Source of the DNA: Marsupella aquatica
Taxonomy: Eukaryota > Plantae > Marchantiophyta
NCBI GenBank assembly: GCA_973895155.1
Contig: OZ316891.1
Location: forward strand, 18,811,048-18,875,047
Direction of reading: 5' to 3'
Length of the DNA: 64,000 nt
The notes beneath the pieces are model-generated. The model ran no database searches and was not told the origin of the DNA. It saw only the letters and a program-made list of their open reading frames with translations. Positions within the stretch are counted from its first letter, which is position 1. The number at the start of each line of letters is the position of its first letter. Of this stretch, positions 44,071 to 64,000 are shown one piece after another. The position numbers were made by a program, and so were the translations under genes.

Positions 44071-44114
44071 CTCTGTATGGAGCGACACAAACTTCGTGCT
44101 CCCTCCATTCCTCG

Positions 44115-45115
44115 GAAGCCATTGTGAACATTGAGATGACAGTTTGTGGGAAATTCATAAATTGGAAGCCCTTGGGTCCCACTTTTAGATGTTGCCCTCA
44201 TGTCATTTTCCACTTGGGCGATTAAAGAGCATTTCTAGGAAGCCATTCGTTAACATTGAGGTGATTGTGAAATTCATTTACTAGAAGCTTTTGGGTCCCA
44301 CTTTTAGATGTTGCTCACCTGTCATGTTGCATTATTTAGATGATAAGAGAGAATTTATAGGAAGCCATCGTCATTAGGTGTCTGCAGTGTGAGATTTATA
44401 TTAGAAGCCCTTCTCCCACTTTTAGATGTTCCACATGTGTCAGTTTCCATTAGGTGCTAAAAGACAATTTCTAGGAAGCCATTCCTGCCGGGTTTGAAGT
44501 TACGGGCAAGTTGCCGAGTTGCCTGGCACATAAACTCATCATTCGCTGGACGAAAATGGCTCTATTTGCCGGATATTCCTGATTATTCCCCGGCCAAGAC
44601 CCGGCCTCATCCTGGACCCCTGCAGCCCTACCCCTCCCTGGACCCGGCCCTGCCCTGCACCCGGCCTGGCCCCTCACCCCGCCCGGCCTCCTCCCCTTCC
44701 TCCCTGCCGGCCCGGGCGCGGGTGGGCCGGGCCAGGGCCGGGACTGTGCATAAGGGGGGAGACCGGGGGATGGGGGAGGGGGGTGAAGTGAGGAACTCAG
44801 GCCTGGACCGGGACGGTCCGGGTGTGACTTGCCAGTTGATGGCCTCTAAAGGCTCTCTTTGCCGGGCTAGTCCAAACCGGGCATTCATGGCATTGAGTGT
44901 GAATTTGATTTATTAGAAGCCCCTGGGTCCCACTTTTAGATGTGGTCCTCTTGTCATTTTCCATTTAGATGATATAAGACCCCGAAGAGAACATTTCTAC
45001 TAAGCCATTCTTAGCATTGAGGAGTGTGGTGGTGTCAAATTCATTCTATAGTTTAGAAGCCTTGGGTCCCACTTTTAGATGAGGCCCTCCCATCATTTTC
45101 CATTTAGGTGATAAG
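44115..45115. repeat. ~120-bp tandem repeat (about 5 copies), interrupted by a GC-rich insertion
   Basis: gaagccatt...cattgag...gaagcccttgggtcccacttttagatg...gtcattttcca recurs at ~44115, 44239, 44361, 44475 (split) and 45002. Confidence 0.8.
44485..44883. mobile_element. GC-rich MITE-like insertion
   Basis: Splits one 120-bp repeat unit between gccattc and atggcattgag. Imperfect TIRs (tgccgggtttg / caaaccgggca) and a TTC (possibly CATTC) duplication. Confidence 0.6.
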
Positions 45116-45550
45116 AGACCACTGAGAATAGCTAAACATTCATTGAGTATTTACTAGATGCCACCATTTTCCAGCAACATGTAAACTCATTTTAACTATT
45201 CACAATTGAGAATAGCTAAACATGTAACCACTATGTAATCTCAAATGAAAGTTAAGTTTCAGGGCCTACAATCTACAGTAGAATGAAACTATAGACTGTG
45301 ACTCTGAGGCATAACAGAAGTTGTGGGTGGAAAACAGGGATTGGGGGAGGGTGAAATTATGAAAATGATCCAACAAGCTTGCAGTCACCTCTATGTGCCT
45401 TGAAAGAACAAAACTTCTGGCTAAGAGAGTCACAAAGCTTCAAATTTGATTGACCTCAACTTAGTAGACAGAAAAAATTTATGAACTACCAAATCCATAG
45501 TCCTTTATTAACCTGTTGCCATAAAGATTGGTCACATGCCATGACCATAA

Positions 45551-45948
45551 TGTTGGAAATGAGCCTCCCTTGTAGCAAGTGTGGCTCAAGGGAGGGTGTT
45601 GGAAATGAGCCTCACTCAACTGACGAGGGATGCAGGCATCAAGGGCCTGTAGCTCAGTGGTAGAGCACTATGATGTACACTGGAGGTACTAGGTTCAATT
45701 CCTAACCGGTCCATGCTGTTGACAATTCCAGCATGGTATCAGAGCCAAAGAACAGGAGTTTCCCTTGTAGCAAGTGTGGCTCAAGGGAGGGTGTTGGAAA
45801 TGAGCCTCACTCGAACTGATGAGGGATGCAGGCATCAAGGGCCTGTAGCTCAGTGGTAGATCACTATGATGTACACTGGAGGTCCTAGGTTCAATTCCTA
45901 GCCAATCGTTCAATTCCTAGCCGGTCCATGCTGTTGACAATTCCAGCA
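45551..45948 (+). mobile_element. TRIM (miniature LTR retrotransposon) with a tRNA-like cassette in each LTR
   Basis: CATAA duplication (45546-45550 and 45949-45953). LTRs TGTTGGAA...TTCCAGCA at 45597-45733 and 45792-45948. tRNA-iMet PBS TGGTATCAGAGCC at 45734 and PPT AAGGGAGGG before each LTR. A deleted extra unit occupies 45551-45596. Confidence 0.9.
45643..45713 (+). pseudogene. tRNA-derived sequence inside the TRIM LTR (second copy ~45839-45928); anticodon unassignable
   Basis: 71 nt. Acceptor stem GGGCCTG/CCGGTCC, D arm GCTC-AGTGGTA-GAGC, T arm CTAGG-TTCAATT-CCTA(A/G). A box TAGCTCAGTGG and B box GGTTCAATTCC are intact; the anticodon stem is mispaired with a 6-nt loop. Confidence 0.8.
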
Positions 45949-49147: not shown

Positions 49148-49526
49148 TGTCATACATAGGCCCCCTTTGGATATACTAGGGGAGAGTTGGCCCTCTCCCC
49201 TCTTTTCCTTCCCTTCATTGAGTTCCTTTGCCATTGGGATCATGTTCCTTTGCCATTGAACCCCAATTTAAGGAAAACCAAACTTTGGAAATTCCAAAAA
49301 TCACTAAATATTATTATTTTAATAAAAAGGGGGCGACATGACGCGTGGCTGTGCGTGAAACCCTGAAAATGACTGCAACGTCACATTTTAACCAATCCAA
49401 CTTGACGGGACCAAGAGACATGCTCACGCGAATAATAATAATAGAGAAATAAATCTTTGAGATCCTTTATATATGATAACCTGTATATAAGGAGTTTACA
49501 AATAGTTTCTAGAACGACAATACAAA

Positions 49527-50255
49527 TTAATCTGATCTCATGCCGACTATTATTTTGGAAGCGTCCAAAATTGGGCGTCTATTAAATTGCTCTACTAGAT
49601 ATCTATCTCCATGCCTCTGAATCACAGGGTCTTCCCATAGAGTATGATTATAATCATAATCTCTAAAAATAGATTTAACTGGCCAATCTGGATAATCTCT
49701 TCCATTGGCAATGACAAGCGGCTCACAAGAGTTTGCTAGCTTGCTAAGATACGGAATCAGCAAGTTAATCAGGAAACTGTCGTCGACCGACCCAAAATAT
49801 TTGGGCGGAAATAATGATCCAACAACAGGATCTAAACAAGCATGAAATGCATCGGATTCGATAAGCATTATATTTTGCTGCAGATACGCCTTTGTATAAA
49901 TTCCAACCTTCTCAAAACACTTCAAAAATATCCGCTTATTTGATGTCACCCAATCGCATAAGTAACAATGAGACTGATCCCAAATATACTTAAATGAGGC
50001 CATTTCCATCGCAGTCAAAATAGATGCTAAAATCTGATCTAAAAGGTTCTTCCCAAGAGAGGACCAGATCCCTACATCGAAATTCTCAAAATAGAATCTC
50101 AAGAATTTGTGAAGATGAGGCCTTGGAAAAATGTATATATTCCCAATCCGAATTCCAGTTGAGACCGCCATCAGTCGGGAATGCGGTGCAGTGTAACAGA
50201 GTAGATGCTCCATGTCTAAAACTATGAGCCCATTTTCTCTGCTGCAATGAATCTC
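49527..50255 (-). CDS. FCP1/NIF-like HAD domain exon 3 (open reading frame; candidate alternative last exon)
   Basis: Acceptor ctctacag|GAG (phase 0). Motifs LIVLDMEHLL, FPRPHLHKFL, FDVGIWSS, FKYIWDQSHC, FLK, NIMLIE. The DxDxT motif is degenerate. Confidence 0.7.
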   Translation of the reverse strand, partial: EIHCSRENGLIVLDMEHLLCYTAPHSRLMAVSTGIRIGNIYIFPRPHLHKFLRFYFENFDVGIWSSLGKNLLDQILASILTAMEMASFKYIWDQSHCYLCDWVTSNKRIFLKCFEKVGIYTKAYLQQNIMLIESDAFHACLDPVVGSLFPPKYFGSVDDSFLINLLIPYLSKLANSCEPLVIANGRDYPDWPVKSIFRDYDYNHTLWEDPVIQRHGDRYLVEQFNRRPILDASKIIVGMRSD

Positions 50256-50341
50256 CTGTAGAGAAACACAAGAAGATGCATGAGCCCGTATGAATGGAGT
50301 CATGCGAATGGTCGCGTCACATATTACAGAGACAACATCCT

Positions 50342-51049
50342 CTACACTCTGGCCATTGATAAGTGACGTCTATTGAAGTGCTTGATAAGAACTTGATCCG
50401 CATGTCTCTGCACATACAGATGCTCCCATATATCCTCGTTCAGATCCCAATCTTGATGTAGATTTCTAATCGACCAGATGGGATAATCGAACTTGTTAGC
50501 GAACGCAAGACAAAGCCCTGAATTTGATAGCTTTCATAAATATGGAATGAGGTCATCCCTCAAAAAGACATCATCCAACGATCCTTGAAACGACTTAGCG
50601 AACAATAATCCGCATACAGCTGTCTGGCATGTATGGGAAGGACAGGCATCAATCTGGATTATATTCTTTGGTCGATAATCTTGAAACATATCACGTAGTC
50701 TCTCGATAGATTTGAAGACAACAATCTTATAATTTTTCTTCACATAACCAAGATTCCAACAATGATCCCTCGTGAACACATATATCAGCTGCGACAGGTC
50801 GGTGCTCGACAACACCTCTGAAAGTATCTGATAAACCAGTTTATTGTCAAGAATAGACTAGACCATCACATCAAAATGATCATAACATAATTTTATAAGA
50901 TCATGAAGATGCAGCCTCAGAACGACACATAGAGATCCGATACGAATTCCAGGTGTCGACTTGAGCTGAGGAGTATATTTTGAAACAGAGCACAGGAAGT
51001 TTTCTAGTCCTAAAACTAGAAGTTGACGCGACCTGCTCCACTTAGACAC
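50342..51049 (-). pseudogene. FCP1/NIF-like HAD domain exon 2 with two in-frame stops
   Basis: Acceptor tttacag|GTG (phase 0). Reads through stops at ~50858 (VMV*S for VMVWS) and ~50534 (LIPYL*KL). Collinear with exon 3 (GIRIG, LIPYL.KL.NS, DYP.W, QRH.D, FNRR). Confidence 0.72.
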
Positions 51050-51174
51050 CTGTAAATGAACAATTTGATTCTCATATTATGCAATTGCAAACAACCACGC
51101 GACCGGGCGCGTCACTCCCAAAAGTTCAATTTCAATCAATTTATAAATAATAATTGATAATAAACAATAAATGT

Positions 51175-54100
51175 TTACTTATTGGACTTATCCCGGGCTT
51201 CTATAGCACGGTCTTTTTCGGCAGATAAGTATTTCATAAATTCGTCAAACTTTTCTAAATGGTCTTTATTCCCCTGATTACGAATGATCACATTTCTCCT
51301 CCAAAGATTTGTCTTATCAATATAATCTTTCTCAAGATTTTCTTGAGAGAACGTTGGAATCCCATATCCACTAAGGAGCTCGCGGAATGTCAACTTGTCA
51401 ATTGACATGTCGCATAGATATGGATATAGTTTCTTTCTAAAAAATAGGTCATCATCGAGCCCAGAATATGCATCGGGATACAGCGATGAATAGAAATCAT
51501 TAAGGCTTGTCTTATATGCAGCGTCATCGATAAGAATGACATTCTCGATGTTGTAATCTTTAATATCGGCGGCAATGTCCAAGAGACATTTGACAAATAA
51601 GGGGATGTCATTATTATTCTTCCCAATAAGTCGAGTTGATTCTTGTCCCCATATAAATTTAATACGTTTCAAAACTTCGGGTCTTAGTATCAGCCTTACA
51701 CAAGATAGAATATTCCATTTGAACATGCACGACCAGATCACAATGTCGTATAGATCTTCCACCTTCTCAAGAAATTCCATTAAATCAGGCCTTGGATAGA
51801 TAACCTTGTGCATCTGTCTCACACCCCTTGACCGAATGGGCATCCCAGGGCTGATCTTCTTTGACCAGATAAGTACCCGATTCAGATCAAAAATTACAAG
51901 TCTCTTATGAACCGGTGACTTCTTTGCCGATGGATTAGGCGCCATCTGTACGTGTGATTTTTGTGCCGCAGGGTTTGGAGAACGGACTAGAACGGTCTGT
52001 TTGTTTCCCGCCTCCGGACGATCACCAGACTTTCGGACTGGTGCCTTCGATACTTGATCAGGGGGTTTCGGGATAGGCTTCTGTAAAACATTAAGAAATG
52101 AAAATAAGTTTATAATGCGAACGGTCGCGTGACTACAAAGAGAGACACTGAAATGAAGTGTATTACCTGTACAAGACGGTCGTTCAGTGCTGGAATTCTG
52201 CCAGAAATGTCAATCATAGTAGCACGGATCCCGGTAACTAGGTTACTTATGGATGTCGGCTTGCGGAAGTCCATGTCAAATAACGACAAGACTATCTCCC
52301 TACAGAATTTCTCAATTTGATCCGCGGCAAAATTAATTTCATTTCCTTGACACAAGCACTTGGCGTATCTCAAGATAAACACACCACAACTGTGGCTGTC
52401 ACTCTGGTGAGGAATATCAATCCGATATATCCGTTCCCAACCTGAGAGATCCAAGTTGACACCAGTTCTCCAGCCAATTTCGTCGGCGTAGTACTTCCCA
52501 ACAATATCTAGCACCCCAGGATTTTGTCGATTATGAACTAGAGAATCTAGGTACTCCAGCCGTTTCTCCTTCGGATACAAGACTACCAATGACCAATGTT
52601 CTTTCACAGCATTGTGTACTGGAAAGACTTGTTTGTCGTAATCACTGATTTTTAGCGGAAACTCCTTTGTCCAAGCTGCTCTCTCCTCGTCGAAAATGGT
52701 AGGATCCATGGAGAGAAGCTCAAAATGGTGTGTTTGGAAGAATTTGACAAGGTCTGACTTTCCAACTCTATCGAGAATCAGTTCGAAAAAACTCAAATAA
52801 CCGTTAATTATATCATCGGTGAGCAACTCGCGCGGTCTCAGACACATCATATGTTTCCTCTTGAATGAGTGTTGTAAGAACTTGGTCAATTAGCTCTTCC
52901 ATATCCTTAGAAGGATCAAGGCATTGATCTATTTGACTAGCCAAATTTTCAAAAAACTGCAAAAAACAGAGATTTCAGTACGCCTTCAAATAACGTACTG
53001 AGGTTGTAGCCTAAGGGTTCTACCTCAGAAAACAGAAACAATAACAAATCAATAATAAAATAATGACGTCTATAATAGAAACTTTAAGCTTATAGCTTGC
53101 GAATGACCTTTGGATTGGGTGGATCCAGCCTTTTCGCAGCTGATCTCTTGGGTGCCTCAATCGCAACAACATCCTTCAGCCCTCCTCGAGACCGTAGTGA
53201 TCGCTCCACCAGACCAGTTTGCGAAGGTTGGAGCGATGAGGCGGGAAAACCTTCAAATGGTTATGGCATTTGATTCAAATATTCCACAATCTGGGAATCC
53301 GATTCCAAAATATCCGGTGCCACAATTTCTGCGCGAGTGACCTCTGCAATATATCGAGGTCGAGACCACGAACCCGGTCGCGTCAAGTCAGCTGTTAGTC
53401 TCTTAACGACTTGAGCCGAGTCTGGTGCCAAAAATGTTCCCAGGTCTTGCACTCGATTCTCGGAAAAGTGGACATTATTGATGATTGTCTCCATTCTGGA
53501 TGCAGTGGCAGTCTTCTCCTCGGTAATCAAAAGACTCTTCCAATATTGCAAAGCAAGGACTGCCTGGACTCGGAGCTGCTCCGATGAATATTTATTCCAA
53601 TCATCCAACGAGACCGTACTTAAGGGTGGATCATTAAATTCAAACTCTGGGCGAAGAAAATAGTCTAATATTTTCTTCTTAACTGCAACTGAGGGTGAAG
53701 AAGGCTTCTTCAAATTCAGCCTTATTTTTGGTAGACGTTGTGCCTCAGGAATAAGCGAAAGATCCTTGGCCCTCTCGGCCTCCTTCCTCGCTGCCTCCAG
53801 TCTTCCGGCTTCTTCTCTCTCCAGTCTTGCGGAATCAACCTTTTCCGCCTCCAACTTCTCCGCCTCCACCCTCTCCGGTCTTGCGGTCTTGTCCGCCATC
53901 CTCTCGGCCAGCAGCCTCTCAGCCGCCACACTCTCCGCCTTGGCCCTATTTCCCTCTGTCACTAAAAGGACTCTCGCAGCCTCCACTTTCTTAGCCTGGG
54001 CTTTCTCAGCCTCCGCGTTCTCGGCCTGGGCTTTCTCCGCCTGGGCTTTCTCAGCAAGGACTCTCGCAGCCTCCGCTTTCTCAGCCTCCGCGTTCTCGGC

Positions 54101-57100
54101 CTGGGCTTTCTTAGCCTCCGCTTTCTCAGCCTCCGCTTTCTTAGCCTGGGCTTTCTCAGCCTCCGCTTTCTCAGCCTCCGCTTTCTCAGCCTCCGCTTTC
54201 TCAGCCTGGGCTTTCTTAGCCTCCGCTTTCTCAGCCTGGGCTTTCTCAGCCTGGGCTTTCTCGGCATCCGCTTTCTCAGCCTGGGCTTTCTCAGCCTGGG
54301 CATTCTCAGCCTCGGCTTTCTCCTTCTTCTTCGCGGCAGTTGCTTTTCTAGCTGCTGCCTTTTTCTTCTTAACCTCCTTCTTTTGAAGCTCCTCTTGCCG
54401 GGCCGCCTCTTGTCGGGACGCCTCCTCCTGCCGGGCCGCCTCCTTCTTTTGAAGCTCCTCTTGCCGGGCCGCTTCCTTCTTTTGAAGCTCCTCTTGCCGG
54501 GCCGCCTCCTGCTGGGCCTCCTCCAGCCTGGCCTCCTCCTGCCGGACCGCCTCCAGCCTGGCCTCCTCCTGCCGGGCCGCCTCCTGCCAGGCCTCCTCCT
54601 GCCGGGCCGCCTCCTCTCTGGCCTCCTCCTGCCGGGCCGCCTCCTCTCCGTCCACCTCATGTCGAGGCTCCTGTGTGGCCTCTTCATCAGAGTCCTCAGC
54701 GTCCTCAGAACCCTCCATCTCCTCGCCCTCTTCATTAGCGTCCTCAGCGTCCTTCATCTCCTCTCCGTCACTCTCTTCATCTCCTCTATTGTCGGAATCT
54801 CCGATGTCGTTCTGCGTATCGGTCATCCACTTTGGATCTTGGTCATTGACATCCCCATCCGTGTCACCTTCCGCGTCACCTTCCCCCTCGCCATCCGCAT
54901 CACCATTGCTCCCTGCATCCTCAACATTGAAGCCGCAGTCGACTTGATCTGAATAAAATCAGATCATTTGATAAGAATGACTCACGCGCATATTCGCGTG
55001 AAAAGAAATGTTATGAATGTCCACGCGCATATTCGCATGACGCAATAAAAAGTAAGAGGTTTCAAAAGTAACTTACCTTGGATTGGCCCACTAGGGTACT
55101 CCATTGGTCGAATGTACAATCGATCGGAATCTTTAGAGAGTGCATACTCTTGCAATAATTGATTACAAATATTATCAGGGATATGTTGTTCGTGGAGGAC
55201 ATCCAAAACATCAGCCCTGAGAGCAGTTACGGATGGACGGTACTTCATTAATTTATCTATACATTTTTCTATACTAGCCCGTACTGGGTCAATCAATGAC
55301 AGCGTTGTATCAATTGTCGCCGTGGTGTGTTGCAAGAAACAAGACAACTCCCTATGCGTTGCCACAGGGCAGTAATATTTTACATTGGATCCAGCATCCT
55401 GTAAAAAAAGCCGAAATTAGTTCACAATATTAATTGAGAATATAATAATCTAAATAATCTTAAAATCGAAACCCCAAAATATAAATCTCAAAACTTACCA
55501 TTAAGCACTGGATCAAGTTTGTTCCCTCACCGAAGCATATAGCCCATTCCCCACATTGGACGAATTGACTAACAATACTTTCAAAGAATGGAAGTGTCTT
55601 TTCTGGGGAAGGTGTCATGAACTCGCTGCTCTCTTCAAAATTGGCTATCTTCTCAATATGATATTTGGAGACCAATTGGAACTCGAGGGCTTGTGGATCG
55701 CCCATTGTGCTGAAGGCCAAGCTGTGAAAAGCGTAGGTTACAATAAGCTTCTTCTCCTTCGGCCGCTTCTGAATATAATGGCTATCGATAGCAACGTAGT
55801 GTGTACTTCCCTAATTCCCGTTTGATTAAGTAAGACTCAATGGGAGAGGCTACAATAATAACCATATGGTGTGGTTTTGCCCCTATCTCGCTAGTAGCAC
55901 GAAATAACCCCTCATAGAATGAGCAATTTGGCGGACGCAAATCTCCCATTGATGAGGGATCAAAATAAATCAAGCTCGCAAGGTTCTTGTCTTCACGTAT
56001 GATACAGTCTGCAAACCCAACATTTTGTATATCCTGCAGGGATCGCAATTTCAGCCTCTCACCGACCGGCCGCACTAGTTGGTTTCCTTGACTATCAACT
56101 GATTTCTGTATTCCTTCCACCAACCTGTAGAATATAGGGTCGATCTCCTTCAACAAATTATCATTACTAATATTTACATTTAAGCACTTCTTCAGATAAC
56201 CACTCAACGCATCTCTCAACTGCTTCAGCACCATCTTGTCGAGCTTAAAGCGATCAATCATTCCTTTAACCCGCAATTTCTGCGCTGAATCTGTCAGACT
56301 TTTAAGCTCCGTCCGGGTGGATGTATCCCCGTTGAGTTTACTCAATAATAAAATATCAAACTCAACTTCCGTCTTCTTCTTTATACATAATTGCTCCAAA
56401 CTCATGCTGGTCGTTGACAACACTGGAGCCTCAGAGGACTTCCTCGCCTTCCTAGATTTCACTTTGATACTTCGGTTTTTGAGTATAGACAGTCTTCCGC
56501 TCAACATATATTCCGCTGCCTTTCGAAGAACCGAGTCTGAGCACCCTTGACAAGAACGGAACGTCTTCTTCAGAAGATGATAAGCACATGGATTATCCGC
56601 AATTTTGACGGCGTCCCTCTGTAAAATTCCGTTGTAAATTACAAGCTCTCCTGTCCTTGATAGTTCGTAGACCTCCATCCACTTCTTGAATATTTCGTCC
56701 TCCATTGTAAAGAGAAACGGAGCCAATTCTCCAAATTTCATCATTTTGTTCTTCCCCATTTGAGCCCATGGGCAAACAAAACTCGTAGCTCTCATAAATA
56801 CCTGAAAAACAATGGAAACATGACAATTCTAAGCTTGACGCGACCATTCGCGTGACAAAAGTTTAAACGATAATGTGATCGAAGAGGGATATTTATATAC
56901 CTTCCAATTTGGATGATGATAATGTGATCCAGGCCGCCCAAATGAGTTCCAAATATTACGACACTGTCGTACAATGGTGAGAAACTGTCCTTCTTCCATT
57001 GATGTTTGATGACAGTGGTTCAGAGCTTTCGATAATCCCATCAAATAAACATTATTGTCGTTGTTGAGCGTTGCCCAAAACATTACAGCTTCTACAGTAC

Positions 57101-58143
57101 CGCAAGTGTCTCGTACAACTTGGCTGACTTTGTCGTCCTCTCTCAGCAATTTGTACGCCATTATTGTGTGCTGGCCTCCGAGTATCCAGAAATGACTGGT
57201 CATAATGTCCTCCTCCTTTGGCGATGAATCGTAGGGCGTCTCATTGTAGTCGGGATCTCTGTCGGCCTCCGACTAAACCCACTTCACAGGGACTAAAAAG
57301 CAGCATTGCTTCTTGAACTTTATAGCCAAATGAGAGAGGAGTGAATTCTTTAGCCTATCTATGTAATCCTGATTCCACTCTCGGCACTTGATGTGGTCCG
57401 GTGCAAGATGACAACGTGATGTCTCAACAAAAAATGACTTGCTGTTAAATATATTCACAGCACTATATTCTTTGAGGAAAGAATCGAACAGAGCCCCTCC
57501 ATTCGCTGAGGTAATTACTTTCGGAAGATTCTCCGCCGAGTATACTTCAACCTTGCTCACTGGCGGGGCCTTTCCCAAGCGAAATCCCTGGTTGAAAGGA
57601 ACTCTCTGGAACTCAAGTATGTCAATAATGTATTGACAAATCAAATCTCCCGTTGATCCCTCTGGATCGGAAGGATATCCCACACTAGTAACCTTTTCCA
57701 AGGCGTGCCTTGCACCTAGAAGATCATCGATTCTGGGCTGATTGAAGGTTACATATTGCGTTCGATCCAAATAAATGCTTATTTTGTCTTCCTGCTGGTC
57801 GTCGCTAACTAGCAGAACCAATCCCTCTGTACACTCTTTAACTTTCATGTTCTTCTCAAAGAAACACCCACCCGAGAATTTTTGATCTCTCCAAAACTGT
57901 AGCTTTATCATTTCTTGCCACCACAAGACAGACAGCCCCATTGCGAACGACTATTCCAAAATCGGATATCTCAGTCGATTCAAAGAGATGGATACTCTTC
58001 GTCTCTATTGTTCTCTCTCTGATTGACTTTCCTTGATATGCAAGTATGGATGTCTCCGCGGGAGTCATTTTTGTCTTGGTTTTCTTACGAGAAGCAGCTT
58101 TAGACGAGTCTCTTTTCCGCTTTGAGGTTCCGGTAGGATCCAT
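51175..58143 (-). pseudogene. Large spliced TE-like gene (~2,100 aa): ParB/Srx-like, degenerate N4/N6 DNA methyltransferase-like, acidic and coiled-coil repeats, Ulp1/C48 protease, FCP1/NIF HAD
   Basis: Phase-compatible GT-AG exons: 58143-56901, 56801-55499, 55398-55077, 54948-53108, 52956-52167, 52080-51175. Motifs: REWNQDYIDRLKNSL...FWILGGQHT; LIYFDPS...PEKTLPFFESIVSQFVQCGEWAICFGEGT; CLRPRELLTDDIIN...HWSL...YLDSL...QSDSHSCGVF; VIFDLN...RPDL...IWS...LIDD. In-frame stops at 57273 and 53261; frameshifts near 57860, 55800 and 52890. Confidence 0.72.
53990..54650 (-). repeat. Coding minisatellites (15-bp AEKAQ/AEKAE and 21-bp EEAARQE units) predicting a long charged helix
   Basis: Repeats gctttctcagcctcc / gctttctcagcctgg and gccgggccgcctcct within ORF 53261-54826. 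Confidence 0.85.
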
Positions 58144-58217
58144 TCTGAAATAGACAAATATTGAAAGTTAAACGTTTATTATAAAATACTAACACGCGCA
58201 TGGTCGCGTCGTGCCGA

Positions 58218-58740
58218 ATTACATTTTAGGAACATTTATCCTGACCCAATCTTCTCGCTCATCTTCATCTAACCAAAACCAAAGGTTCCTAAACATGTCA
58301 AGTTCAGATCCTTCAAATCCACCCAGAATGTCCAGCGGCGGGAGAGTTCTGATGGATTCTGTAAATCTTAATGCTACACTCAGTGAAGTCAAATGCCTTC
58401 AAAGCGATTCATATCCTGGTCTATCAGTGAAGTCGTAAGCTACCAAGGTGACCGTCGCCCAAGTACTACTATAAGTAACTATGTGGCACCACTTCTTACT
58501 GACTGTTCGAATGGCGATCAAGTCCATGACCCGATTTTTAATCGCAGTATCCGACAAATTCCCAAGATAGTGGAAAAACTCTTTGACTAATGGCCAAATA
58601 TATTTCTCGACAATATCGTCCGGAAAACCGGGTATCAGGTCTTCAGCTTGACTCCATATCATGTTTCGGTTGATAACCTTTGCACGTGCAATGCGCTCCA
58701 TCATCATTTGATGATGAGATTTTCGATTCATGTCAAAGGA
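58218..58740 (-). pseudogene. F-box-like ORF 2 (one in-frame stop)
   Basis: LIPGFPDDIVEKYIWP...LIAIRTVSKKWCHIV; acceptor ctgcag at 58741. Reads through TGA at 58399 to WLDEDERED...PKM*. Confidence 0.6.
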
Positions 58741-58783
58741 CTGCAGCATAATATGGAAAAGATTAAGAACAAGAACCTATCCA

Positions 58784-59242
58784 TTAAGAACTGGGACCAC
58801 CGAGATTATGAGAAAATCTACCAAACCTTTTGATTAGGACATCTCGTTCTTCCTCATCTAAATTGTTATATTTGTTCGTAGAGAGAGACTCATTTCCGAT
58901 CGGTTTAGTAGGATTTCCTGGGAAAGCCAAATCTAATAAACTCAACTTGATTACACCCAGATGATAGGTATTCCCAACAAGGTGGCGCCATCTGCGACAC
59001 ACCGAAGATAGTCCTACAAACTCATCCAATTCCTTTATTGAGAAATTTCCTGCATTAGCCGAGGAATTAAAAGTCTCCTTGATCCGAGGCCATATCAATT
59101 CCGCGACAATGAAATTTGGAAGTCCAGGTAGTAGTGTTTCAACAAATATAGAATATCCCGCCAGTAGACCATCTTGGCTTCTGTCCAAAACATCAAATAT
59201 TGGGCATAGATATCTGAAGCTCTCCAGACCAGGTTTGCCCAT
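58784..59242 (-). CDS. F-box-like ORF 1
   Basis: LLPGLPNFIVAELIWP...LSSVCRRWRHLV; paralogous to ORF 2 (LDEEERD vs LDEDERE). The 5' end is uncertain. Confidence 0.55.
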   Translation of the reverse strand: MGKPGLESFRYLCPIFDVLDRSQDGLLAGYSIFVETLLPGLPNFIVAELIWPRIKETFNSSANAGNFSIKELDEFVGLSSVCRRWRHLVGNTYHLGVIKLSLLDLAFPGNPTKPIGNESLSTNKYNNLDEEERDVLIKRFGRFSHNLGGPSS

Positions 59243-59365
59243 GACTCTTTTCAGCCAAATGATATATCCCAGAGATTATTTTCTACAAATCAGAATGTAT
59301 AAACAATTCTTTGAGAGACTGATTTTTTCGAGTCACAACATGATAAATCATAAATGTTGCTTCGT

Positions 59366-61380
59366 CCTCTAACAGAACCAGTCAATGAGAGAGCTACCTC
59401 AGACGCGAATGGTCGCGTCAACTGCCCCTAAATGAAACCTTACCTCCTCTAACAGAACTAGTCAATGAGAGATCTACCTCAGATGCGACTAGTCGCGTCA
59501 ACTGGTCCTAAAAGGAACTTTACCTCCTCTAACAGAACCAGTTAATGAGAGAGCTACCTAAGACGCGACTGGTCGCGTCACCTGAACCTAAACAACTATA
59601 TCCACTGAACCTTCCTTGTGGAGATTTGGATATGGTACGCGCTCAGTAAATCTATCCAGTTTCCTTCTCACACGCGACTGGTCGCATCAACTGGTCCTAA
59701 AAGGAACCTTACCTCCTATAACAGAACCAGTCAATGAGAGAGCTATCTCAGACGCGATTGGTCGCGTCACCTGAACCTAAACAACTATATCCAGTGAACC
59801 TTCATTGTGGAGATTTGGATATGGTACGCGCTCAGTAAATCTATCCAGTTTCCTTCTCACACGCGATTGGTTGCGTCAACTAGTCCTAAAAGGAACCTTA
59901 CCTCCTCTAACAGAACCAGTCAATGAGAGAGCTACCTCAGACGCGACTGGTCGCGTCAACTGGTCCTAAAAGGAACCTTACCTCCTCTAACAGAACCAGT
60001 CAATGAGAGAGCTACCTCAGACGCGATTGGTCGCGTCAACTGAACCTAAACAACTATATTCACTGAACCTTCCTTGTGGACATTTGGATATGGTACGCGC
60101 TTAGTAAATCTATCATGTTTCCTTCTGACACGCGACTGGTCGCGTCAACTGGTCCTAAAAGGAACCTTACCTCCTCTAACAGAACCAGTCAATGAGGGAG
60201 CTACCGCAGACGCGACTGGTCGCGTCAACTGGTCCTAAAAGGAACCTTACCTCCTCTAACAGAACCAGTCAATGAGAGAGCTACCTCAGACGCGACTGGT
60301 CGCGTCAACTGAACCTAAACAACTATATTCACTGAACCTTCCTTGTGGACATTTGGATATGGTACGCGCTTAGTAAATCTATCATGTTTCCTTCTGACAC
60401 GCGACTGGTCGCGTCAACTGGTCCTAAAAGGAACCTTACCTCCTTTAACAGAACCAGTCAATGAGGGAGCTACCGCAGACGCGACTGGTCGCGTCAACTG
60501 AACCTAAAAGGAACCTTACCTCCTCTAACAGAACTAGTCAATGAGAGAGCTATCTCAGACGTGACTGGTTGCGTCAACTGAACCTAAACAACTATATCCA
60601 CTGAACCTTCCTTGTGGAGATTTGGATATGGTACGCGCTCAGTAAATCTATCCTGTTTCCTTCTGACACGTGACTGGTCGCGTCAACTGGTCCTAAAAGG
60701 AACCTTACCTCCTCTAACAAAACCAGTCAATGAGAGAGCTACCTGACGCGACTGGTCGCGTCAACTGAACCTAAACAACTATATCCACTAAACCTTCCTT
60801 GTGGAGATTTGGATATGGTACGCGCTCAGTAAATCTATCCAGTTTCCTTCTGACACGAGACTGGTCGTGTCAACTGGTCCTAAAAGGAACCTTACCTCCT
60901 CTAACAGAACCAGTCAATGAGAGAGCTACCTCAGACGTGACTGGTCTCGTCAACTGAACCTAAAAGGAACCTTACCTCCTCTAACAGAACCAGTCAATGA
61001 GAGAGCTATCTCAGACATGACTGGTCGCGTCAACTGAACCTAAACAACTATATCCACTGAACCTTCCTTGTGGAGATTTGGATATGATACGCGCTTAGTA
61101 AATCTATCATGTTTCCTTCTGACACGCGACTGGTCGCGTCAACTGGTCCTAAAAGGAACCTTACCTCCTCTAACAGAACCAGTCAATGAGATAGCTACTT
61201 GACGCGACTGGTCGCGTCAACTGAACCTAAACAACTATATCCACTGAACCTTCCTTGTGGAGATTTGGATATGGTACGCGCTCAGTAAATCTATCCAGTT
61301 TCCTTCTCACACGCGACTGGTCGCGTCAACTGGTCCTAAAAGGAACCTCACAATATTTTCACGCGACTGGTCGCGTCAAC
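59366..61380. repeat. Higher-order tandem array of 80-bp (A, about 14) and ~110-bp (B, about 8) units, each carrying the palindrome GACGCGAC-TG-GTCGCGTC
   Basis: Order approximately AAAB AB AAB AAB AAB AB AAB AB plus a terminal palindrome at ~61360; about 23 palindromes. Confidence 0.92.
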
Positions 61381-62339
61381 AGCTCAAACAACTTTTGGAC
61401 AATAGGATAATACAGTGATACAACTGTGATTACTGACTCGTACGGACAAGGAAATCCGAGTAAGCATGATTTCATTCATTTGTATTCATTCATTTGTATT
61501 CATTCATGAACTTTACAATAATTCAGATGTTTGAGCTCTGTCATTGTGAAACTATTATATATCAAAAGTTTAGAGAATGATCCAGCTAAGATGATTCAAT
61601 TTAGCAGTCTACTGGTTGTATTCGTCAATTAAAGGATTCAGTGTAATGAGATTCATATAACATGAGAGTTTATATGATTAAATTCACAGCGTGCAAGTTT
61701 GTAATGACTTACTTAAGACGATTCAGGTTGTATTTTAATTAGTGAGTTTGTATGATTCACACATATTTGAGTTTACAAACAAACCGCATTATGAAAACTC
61801 AGCTTAACAATCAAGAGAAATTTTAGCAAACCACAATCAACACCAGCAGAAAATGTAGAAATTGCACCTGAATTCTGAAAAATTGATGTACTCGTCTGAG
61901 AGATTGACGTCCAAGCACTTGAAGACCTTGTTGCGGCATTCCAGAAAGTAAATATAAGATTGAAGATATTAATATGCTAAGCAACAACAACACAGCTTCT
62001 ATACTTCTATACATAGAGCTTCGCTGCCACCAATTGAATAACATGTGCTTAATGCTAAGGAGCTCATTATGTCGAGTTAAAAAGACTCTTTCAGAAGTAC
62101 AATCAAAGCTGTGGATAGGCAAACTGAGCATGAATAAAAGCGCACTAAACCTGAAGATTCAAAGAGGTGAAACAAACCTGAATGCTGATGGAAGGAGCTG
62201 AAACAAGCTGCCAAAAAGTAGTTCGAGCTGCTGAAACACATTGATCGAGTTGATATGAGCTTAAAATTGGCTGACACGAGCTGATACAAGCACTCCCAAA
62301 AAGCTAGCTGCAATGAACTAGCAAACTAGAAGTGAATAC

Positions 62340-62545
62340 GAGCTGTAAATGCGAGCTGCAATGCGCCAACGAGCTCCTAGTCGAAACGATGGACAACTAC
62401 TAAGAGCTGCAACGCGCCGTCAAGCACCTGACCACAACGAACGAGCTGCAATGCGCCAACGAGCTCCTGGTTGAAACGATGGACAACTACTAAGAGCTGC
62501 AACGCGCCGACAAGCACCTGACCACAATGAACGAGCTGCAACGAC
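62340..62545. repeat. ~91-bp tandem repeat near the putative 5' end of the element
   Basis: gagctgcaatgcgccaacgagctcc...aaacgatggacaactactaagagctgcaacgcgcc.caagcacctgaccacaa occurs twice, plus scattered gagctg motifs. Confidence 0.75.
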
Positions 62546-62884
62546 AAAAATGAAATCCAGGGCAGGAGCGAGAGCGAGAGCGACGAGAGCAGGCGCGCGA
62601 AAGTCTAGGGAGCGAGAAACAACAACAATGAACAGTGAACTCGAGACCGCGGGCGCCGACACTAAGGAAGGACTAATTAGGGTATTGTTTTAGCATAACC
62701 CTAATAACAGCCTAGCGACAAGAAGGTTCCAGATGATCTCCGTACAGTCCACCATCGACTGAACAAACTATGCAATCGTGAGAAAAAGATTACCGGATTC
62801 CTTTTGATTTGCCGTACTAAAGGAGATTTCTATTTGATCGCCAATTTGAAATTTAAACCGGTAATTATGCAACTGCGAAAGATT

Positions 62885-63125
62885 GTTAGTGGGGACCCCC
62901 GGATCCGGATCCGGATCCGTATCTTCACTATATCTGCCAATTCAAATCCAAAATGTGAACGAACGACAACTTTCTCACGATCGTTCCATCACGTAGTGGA
63001 GGCGAATTTCAAAATCATTCCATTTTGGTAGTGGAGACCGTCGGATCCGGATCCGTACTCCACTCTCTATCTTGCCAATTCAAACCCAAACTCTAAACAA
63101 CGTAAAACGATTCTCACGGTCGGGG
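62885..63125. repeat. ~140-bp imperfect duplication with GGATCC repeats and ttctcacg motifs
   Basis: tagtgg.gacc...ggatccggatccgta...tgccaattcaaa...ttctcacg at ~62887 and ~63029. Confidence 0.65.
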
Positions 63126-64000
63126 AGAACCGATATTCAAAATCAATCCTGTACAATGATTCTCACGACTGGAGACTCAACCAATTTTCAAAATCAAAAT
63201 CGAGTCCAGATGAACACATCCTCCATGGAGTCAATAGACTGATCTCATTGCTCACGGATCATTCTTCATTTTCAGTTTCTCCTGACCAGGATACTAGCTG
63301 GGCTCTCAGCGGAGGCTGATCCAAGGCACATTTGAGGTGGAGCAGATTGGATCATTCGACTATTCCTGCCGGAGGCGGAGCTCATTCAAGCAACGCTGGC
63401 GCAGTTCTTGTTGTATCACCTTCAATCTTGGGGAGAGCACATCCGATCAAGCGGGAGAGTTGCGACGAAGCGAGACGACAAACATTTAGAACCTCCATAG
63501 TCTGCCTCATTCATCGAAGCATTCTAGCGGACCAACAAAGAGCGGCTATTCTGAAATCACAGTCTGGTCGAGGATTTTGATCTTGATACGATCAACAAGT
63601 TATCATTCTCTGGTGGTGGGATTCGATCACGATACTCAAGGAAATTGGAGTTCGAAGGAGGAGGCTTAGTTGGCTGGGACGAGGAGGCTACGCTGGAAGG
63701 AAGAGGCTTGGCTAGGAGGAGGGTTTCCGCCAACATCGAAGGGTTGCCGCCAACATTGCTGAGACCACACGCAACTGAATAACTTGTAAGTATCAATCAG
63801 CATTAATTCCGCAATGAAGGAGGAGAGTAGTTGCCTTAAATCACGCATTCAATGCATGAATTGAGTCAATGAAGTTATGGTCCAATTTCTCACTCCAATT
63901 TTGATCAATCCATTTTTCAAGTCCAATACAGAAGCAATGTATCAGAAGTACTAGTAGAGGATCCGAATGAATTCTCTAGTCTAAAATTGTATGGCGTACG

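Follow-up and report, generated by a model that had tools for sequence, protein, structure and literature searches.

An 18-bp palindrome in the introns and upstream array of a putative liverwort transposon, a candidate site for the element's own ParB-like protein

In red-algal Plavaka (EnSpm) transposons, tandem inverted-repeat arrays adjoin ParB-like PAG3 genes and an N6-methylase gene lies in the cassette, as told in the relevant passages of 10.1101/2025.02.11.637652. The Ectocarpus element Sola1-1_Ec32 encodes one protein with ParB-like and N4-C/N6-A methyltransferase domains, and the passage on it raises the possibility that such self-binding accessory proteins form a new class (PMC12477816). 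Both papers propose, in these passages and without a test, that algal ParB-like accessory proteins bind and modify their own elements. In Arabidopsis VANDAL elements, the excerpts on VANC21 place its 9-base motif in introns, intergenic gaps and tandem repeats (PMC5735166; PMC10398659). Further excerpts report that TnpA binds motif clusters at element termini (10.64898/2026.08.24.746577), that a Zisupton isoform contains an F-box (PMC12062965), and that ParB-linked and inactive transposon methyltransferases exist, the family described below being absent from those passages (PMC4738411). Here we analyse 64,000 nucleotides of the liverwort Marsupella aquatica (assembly GCA_973895155.1, contig OZ316891.1, positions 18,811,048 to 18,875,047, forward strand; hereafter the window), which contain a likely transposon in a broken copy, with an 18-bp palindrome in its introns and in a 23-copy tandem array. 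We put at about 0.57 the probability that this palindrome is a double-stranded DNA site for a dimeric protein that the element encodes, in all likelihood the ParB-like, methyltransferase-fold one. A literature search, largely outside subscription journals, found nothing on this element or on such intron palindromes.

An earlier note on the window had singled out the palindrome ACGCG-N6-CGCGT ahead of predicted 3' splice sites. At up to one mismatch it has 27 matches in the window, against 0.22 expected. The refined consensus is longer, an 18-mer of the form S-ACGCG-MMYRKK-CGCGT-S; when two mismatches are allowed it occurs 31 times, as 23 array copies and 8 dispersed ones. At up to three mismatches there are 32 matches against 0.32 expected, a count not independent of the copies from which the consensus was derived; all lie inside 50301-62599, and none falls among the host genes that fill 49 kb of the window. 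Chance may account for the 3-mismatch copy at 62582-62599, which lies upstream of the array where the sequence is GC-rich. Seven dispersed copies (18-mer starts at 50301, 51096, 52114, 54983, 55022, 56837 and 58193) stand where the earlier note had located them; we add the exon copy at 53367, the half-sites at 51026 and 49426, and a 34-nucleotide spacing within the array unit. The 56837 copy is inverted relative to the array, so the motif is present in both orientations.

The conserved half-sites and the six-nucleotide spacer length of that note hold. Its freely varying spacer does not: the spacer fits MMYRKK in all 8 dispersed and in 20 of the 23 array copies, which rules a free spacer out, and not one of 200,000 random sets of seven hexamers fits any such symmetric two-letter pattern. 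Taken by half-site, the dispersed copies have S at the flank in 15 of 16 cases, M at each of the two inner positions in 16 of 16, and Y at the centre in 16 of 16. Changes in the arms are CpG transitions in 14 of 17 instances overall. The flanks of the dispersed copies resemble neither the array nor one another beyond shuffled sequences (best 12/22; null maxima 10-16), so the motif alone has been kept. Seven of the eight lie within the approximately 11% of sequence that is non-coding (P=1.2e-6).

Proteins that read DNA through its grooves usually leave ambiguities of these kinds: S, M/K and a central Y-R step. The symmetric variable positions do not keep their pairs: 14 of 32 are Watson-Crick, compared with 15.5 expected under independence, and pairing at the four variable positions occurs in 2, 3, 4 and 5 of the 8 copies. 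Variation that is symmetric without preserving pairs thus fits the readout of double-stranded DNA and not an RNA stem.

All splice sites given here are sequence predictions. On the minus strand, the end of the 16-mer lies 34, 35 and 36 nucleotides from the end of the AG in one group of copies and 46, 47 and 49 in another; counted from the 18-mer, each distance is one less (33, 34, 35 and 45, 46, 48), exactly as first reported. The 80-nucleotide array unit adds a further motif-to-AG distance of 34. In shuffles of this unit, a donor together with an acceptor at 34-36 nucleotides arises in 0.07% of cases, and the array holds 12 GTAAGG-type donors. Since the unit reads donor, motif, then AG at 34 nucleotides, a leader intron bearing the motif is the probable origin of the array. 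Its palindromes span 59402-61377, 1.2 kb upstream of the ParB-like exon and upstream of all genes of the cassette. The 109-nucleotide unit (59637-61283) contains an extra ACGCGC half-site, intact at 8 of 8 places.

The ParB-like region has a relative, P0023, that is 51% identical over 316 residues. Its order of motifs fits what we take to be the ParB consensus. The CTP-binding motif of ParB is GxxR; the window and P0023 both read GGQHT, with threonine at the arginine position. The exon that follows has 19 relatives (phmmer), among which P0001 is 56% identical; 4 of 10 relatives looked up are named Calypogeia fissa, a liverwort. In the model of P0001 (predicted local distance difference test, pLDDT, 78.8), residues 242-452 resemble beta-class amino-methyltransferases (Foldseek E 4e-5), with Z 12.7, root-mean-square deviation 4.2 and 183 aligned residues against CcrM, and Z 12.6 against M.MboII. 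The exon product is thus predicted to have an N4/N6 methyltransferase fold, a prediction made on the relative P0001 and not on the window protein itself. Active members of this class have a (D/N/S)PP(Y/F/W) catalytic motif and FxGxG. Here the second motif is FGEG and the catalytic one is DPSS, with DCSV, DSTL, DGTI, DSSI, DTSL and DATL in the relatives; since every relative spanning the catalytic motif has a degenerate version, the domain probably lacks activity.

Under the explanation we favour, the ParB-like, methyltransferase-fold protein would bind as a dimer, loading both onto the 23-copy array and onto the copies in introns and so marking its own transposon. The loaded protein would bring the F-box-like, Ulp1 and NIF domains to the chromatin of the element, which might thereby be kept expressed or mobile. 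The distance to acceptors would be a by-product of packing, with one pair of distances inherited by exon duplication. Motif symmetry, confinement to the cassette, placement mostly in non-coding gaps and the domain content all speak for this explanation, within which the binder and the purpose are inferred. The earlier suggestion of a dimeric DNA-binding site in non-coding gaps, like parS or the VANC targets, is favoured by the symmetric, pairing-neutral degeneracy, the array, the seven of eight non-coding positions and the algal precedents; the motif is a palindrome and VANC domains were not found, so it is not the VANC system itself.

Several results weigh against the explanation. ParB membership is weak (Pfam ParBc_2 E 0.14), the region has no match in NCBIfam, PHROGs or the PDB sequences, and its single-sequence model reaches a pLDDT of 35. 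The N-terminal 240 residues of P0001 are barely covered by the fold search, and we claim no helix-turn-helix there. A transposase beyond the window may be the binder, and the whole analysis rests on a single locus, a broken one. Each copy can form a hairpin of some kind (-4.3 to -12.5 kcal/mol), and for 7 of 9 partners the net duplex energy with the inverted 56837 copy is -13 to -25 kcal/mol. Against uniform placement, which uses the observed intron lengths and, for post-stop gaps, lengths that assume G-TAA donors, the three intron distances fall within 2 nucleotides with P 0.007-0.013, the six distances form two tight clusters with P 0.004-0.012 (0.009-0.017 with NIF2/3 merged), and the four distances including the array unit fall within 2 nucleotides with P 0.0005-0.0016. 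Being tighter than uniform placement, the regularity of spacing is real. The null that explains much of it, in which each site is pushed towards the 3' end up to the limit set by the branch-point region, was chosen after the data had been seen and still leaves P 0.007-0.15 for four distances. Finally, NIF2 and NIF3 hold 47 and 46 nucleotides though their intron ends have lost similarity (17/46; shuffled mean 14.6).

The most credible alternative, improbable as we judge it, retains the DNA site and changes the binder: a transposase or TnpA-like protein encoded past the right edge, or a recruited host CGCG-binding factor. The symmetry evidence applies to it equally, the CpG-rich segment runs off the window, half-sites cluster by its left edge, and binding to clustered motifs in their own elements is on record for transposases and TnpA (10.64898/2026.08.24.746577). 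In that paper, however, TnpA binding is placed only at termini, whereas the sites here run through the gene body. The 49 kb of host genes free of copies argue against this alternative, as does the published precedent, in the passages cited above, of a ParB-like gene beside an inverted-repeat array.

An RNA role is unlikely. The inverted 56837 copy would dock with downstream same-sense copies and loop out exons, or each copy would form a hairpin before the branch point, in either case selecting among acceptors such as those of NIF1-3. The regular spacing, the strong pairing of 56837, the intron architecture of the array unit and the phase-0 NIF1-3 acceptors, in frame with the Ulp1 donor, NIF2/3 having no start, speak for such a role. 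However, in 56837 against its partners, where 136 of 162 positions are Watson-Crick, non-pairing positions (19) exceed wobbles (7), and a single inverted copy of any asymmetric palindrome yields such pairing. In whole-intron folding, the canonical five-pair stem has a probability of at least 0.76 in 2 of 7 introns and at most 0.16 in 4, while in one only the inner pairs form. Two of three arm changes in intron copies give a C-A mismatch in the sense RNA, and none is compensated. One copy and one half-site sit in coding exons, three acceptors have no copy, and 23 array copies would be superfluous. Rfam returns no match at E≤1, which rules out a known RNA family. The hairpin or docking element first proposed to govern splicing gains nothing from the variation or from intron folding, and keeps in its favour the spacing, the pairing of 56837 and the resemblance of NIF2/3 to alternative last exons.

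The regular acceptor distance is probably a packing effect of tiny introns: in introns of 70-130 nucleotides, a GC-rich 18-mer barred from the branch-point and pyrimidine region lands just upstream of it. With sites hugging the 3' end in this way, the three intron distances have P 0.035-0.28. The 46/47 pair, inherited by exon duplication and yet kept, suggests some constraint on position. We consider quite doubtful a scheme in which a land-plant transposon would label, at the DNA level, where its introns end on the 3' side: a ParB-like clamp with a dead methyltransferase fold would bind the parS-like palindrome 34-36 or 46-49 bases before each acceptor, its attached carboxy-terminal domain (CTD)-phosphatase-like and SUMO-protease domains controlling both splicing and last-exon choice in the transcript of the element. 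A long shot, too, is a DNA site selected for position, at which the bound protein would act through NIF and Ulp1 on RNA polymerase II before acceptors, securing splicing or last-exon choice. It would unite DNA-type degeneracy with positional constraint (34, 34, 35, 36; 46, 47, 49), and three NIF domains are in the cassette; against it, the DxDxT/V motif of NIF is degenerate in all three domains, and the packing null covers much of the spacing.

Least credible of all is neutral debris, short array patches copied into AT-rich gaps and tolerated only there, as the broken locus and the 12/22 flank bases shared by the 56837 copy and the 109-nucleotide unit might suggest: that match is within the null, the symmetric degeneracy is unlike an outcome of mutation, and a motif with four CpGs survives amid randomised flanks, at homologous positions of paralogs 34% identical.

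Two other candidates are ruled out. A general host splice element has no copies outside 50301-62599 to support it. Spread of a motif-plus-acceptor cassette from the array is contradicted by flank identity within the null, by the inverted copy and by relatives whose open reading frames (ORFs) break at the same two introns.

The features of the cassette and of the motif are collected in Table 1.

Table 1. Coordinates in the window of the palindrome copies, half-sites (lone ones found with a half-site profile), array and cassette genes; splice sites are predicted.
Feature	Position	Strand	Remarks
Motif copy	58193..58210	.	In predicted 78-nt phase-2 intron 58222-58145, from F-box-like ORF 2 to ParB-like exon
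Motif copy, inverted relative to array	56837..56854	.	In predicted 99-nt intron 56900-56802
Two motif copies (54983, 55022)	54983..55039	.	In predicted 128-nt phase-1 intron 55076-54949
Motif copy, 2 mismatches	53367..53384	.	Inside coding exon
Motif copy	52114..52131	.	In predicted 86-nt intron 52166-52081, from Ulp1 to NIF1, in frame
Motif copy	51096..51113	.	47 nt upstream of predicted NIF2 acceptor (51050)
Motif copy	50301..50318	.	46 nt upstream of predicted NIF3 acceptor (50256)
Perfect half-site (51026)	51024..51033	.	Within NIF2 exon; top-scoring lone half-site of the window
Half-sites, including a perfect one at 49426	49331..49433	.	Beyond last ORF, by left edge
Tandem array	59365..61380	.	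78-80-nt and 109-nt units; 23 palindrome copies
Last 80-nt array unit, read as 75-nt GT-AG intron	59369..59443	-	Predicted donor GTAAGG, motif, predicted AG 34 nt past motif
CpG-rich transposon-like segment	49300..64000	.	CpG observed/expected and change-point
Two tandem F-box-like ORFs	58223..59275	-	Pfam F-box E 0.004 and 0.02, under curated cut-off; second ORF with internal stop
Exon with ParB-like region (~57450-56950)	56901..58144	-	Pfam ParBc_2 E 0.14; one frameshift, one stop
Exon with helical region and predicted beta-class amino-methyltransferase-fold domain (~56080-55499)	55499..56801	-	Fold from relative's model; one frameshift
Linker exons, acidic and Ala/Glu/Lys repeat regions	53085..55398	-	One stop
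Ulp1-type (Peptidase_C48) exon	52167..52956	-	Pfam E 4.7e-17
Three tandem NIF (CTD-phosphatase-like) domains	49527..52080	-	Pfam E 1.1e-9 and 5.5e-14, with a third, broken NIF between; each with its own predicted phase-0 acceptor

Four predicted junctions are in frame (56900-56802, 55498-55399, 55076-54949 and 52166-52081), and the ORFs of relatives break at the first two. In one distant relative, P0014, the ORF includes 16 codons from the 3' end of the first intron; inspection by eye of this single case showed no trace of a translated motif at 34-36 nucleotides. The earlier note had three acceptors with copies following a stop codon. At 58193 the TAA stop belongs to a GTAATT donor whose junction keeps the frame, so that the gap reads as a fifth ordinary intron, of 78 nucleotides; an ATG directly follows the 58145 acceptor and could also be a start. 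The other two, at 50301 and 51096, are not independent cases, since their acceptors occupy homologous positions of two paralogous NIF exons. The gaps ending at the predicted acceptors 55399, 52957 and 58742 contain no motif copy, in agreement with that note, which had the last at 58741. The motif-less gap before the Ulp1 exon (52976-53030) has two other inverted repeats on the sense strand, both folding as hairpins; one has perfect 8-base arms that end ~19 nucleotides before the acceptor.

All three NIF acceptors are phase 0 and would join the Ulp1 donor in frame. For NIF2 and NIF3, joining from the G-TAA donors located at the stops upstream would break the frame, no start codon precedes the domain, and a weak GTGTAG donor would link NIF2 to NIF3 in frame; these two may possibly be alternative last exons. 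They share 34% identity over 107 residues, and NIF2 carries internal stops. Second CAG acceptors (51033; 50239-50242), read by eye and not computed, lie ~14-17 nucleotides past the strong NIF2/NIF3 acceptors. Joined to the local phase-2 G-TAA donors they would keep the frame, and therefore alternative 3' sites could switch between stop and read-through.

Searches with the encoded proteins were otherwise sparse. The ParB-like piece returned one relative only in a protein search, a search of longer proteins returned none for the second exon, and one with NIF1 returned none. ESM Atlas gave no usable match, and tblastn against plasmids and phages gave nothing significant. Related loci were found in neither viral contigs, metagenome contigs nor prokaryote genomes.

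The CpG observed/expected ratio is 0.85-0.93 from ~49.3 kb to 64000 and 0.54-0.56 leftwards, with the best change-point at 49333 (interval 49196-51099). The segment probably has its left edge near 49.3 kb and its right end past the window. A CACTA pentamer at 49302, ~30 nucleotides from the change-point and followed by half-sites, has no partner end in the window and is, taken alone, weak evidence of an element end. A Pfam scan of 91 ORFs revealed no transposase (ORFs under 100 residues within 49500-59400 were mostly outside the scan), and neither terminal inverted repeats nor a target-site duplication were found within 43000-64000. The cassette is taken as a likely transposon, assigned to no superfamily, because of its gene content and the published parallels. 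This copy is disrupted by frameshifts and stops.

Further right, a 100-nucleotide direct repeat with GGATCC runs (62883-63122) precedes an acceptor-like tract, and downstream of it lie decayed plus-strand frames without a Pfam match (63250-63790); together they may mark where a divergent gene of this element begins. To the left of the segment, a 188-nucleotide direct repeat (45566-45948), each copy with a tRNA-like start (TAGCTCAGTGGTAGAGCA), is possibly tRNA-derived. Several degenerate repeats of ~115-270 nucleotides occupy 44106-45121, with a very GC-rich, palindrome-rich core at 44600-44830.

Bacterial parS is a palindrome of 16-18 bp present in several copies near the ParB gene. Our motif shares this size, symmetry and multiplicity beside a ParB-like gene. 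Unlike ParB-parS, it belongs to a eukaryotic, intron-bearing locus, no ParA was matched in the Pfam scan of window ORFs, and the GxxR arginine is replaced by threonine. In Dscam, docking and selector sites pair intronic elements ahead of paralogous exons. Here, too, paralogous exons each have an intronic element before the acceptor, with one complementary copy upstream; the elements differ in being self-complementary, in varying without keeping pairs and in forming a 23-copy array as well.

The locus offers a sharply defined candidate site and the gene for a candidate binder, which makes the self-binding idea put forward for algae testable. It would be a land-plant case, in which a probably inactive methyltransferase fold is joined to SUMO-protease, phosphatase-like and F-box-like parts. 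If true, plant transposons would have a second way of addressing their own chromatin, in addition to VANC and TnpA; and should the acceptor spacing be under selection, a DNA-bound protein would be tied to splice-site choice.

The likeness to the algal Plavaka and Sola1 proteins is one of architecture and description. With Plavaka PAG2/PAG3, as the passages present them, the element shares a ParB-like gene by a tandem inverted-repeat array, an N6-adenine methylase domain in the cassette and a proposal of self-binding. The algal genes are separate, one fusing ParB to a 2OG-oxygenase and the other joining the methylase to SET; here, the ParB-like and methyltransferase-fold parts are in one gene, in a cassette with Ulp1, NIF and F-box-like domains, with a degenerate catalytic motif, sites in introns and no transposase seen. 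With Sola1-1_Ec32, a giant DNA transposon in the passages on it, it shares ParB-like and methyltransferase parts in one protein; that element is from a brown alga, and those passages include no target motif, Ulp1, NIF or F-box. As in VANDAL elements, in the excerpts on them, an element-specific motif is concentrated in non-coding gaps and tandem repeats. By the same excerpts, VANC21 recognises a 9-base non-palindrome in one orientation and has DUF1985/DUF287, whereas the motif here is an 18-bp palindrome in both orientations and neither domain has a Pfam match in the window. Altogether, the element would work like the Plavaka/Sola1 and VANDAL-type systems, while standing outside both the VANC family and ParABS.

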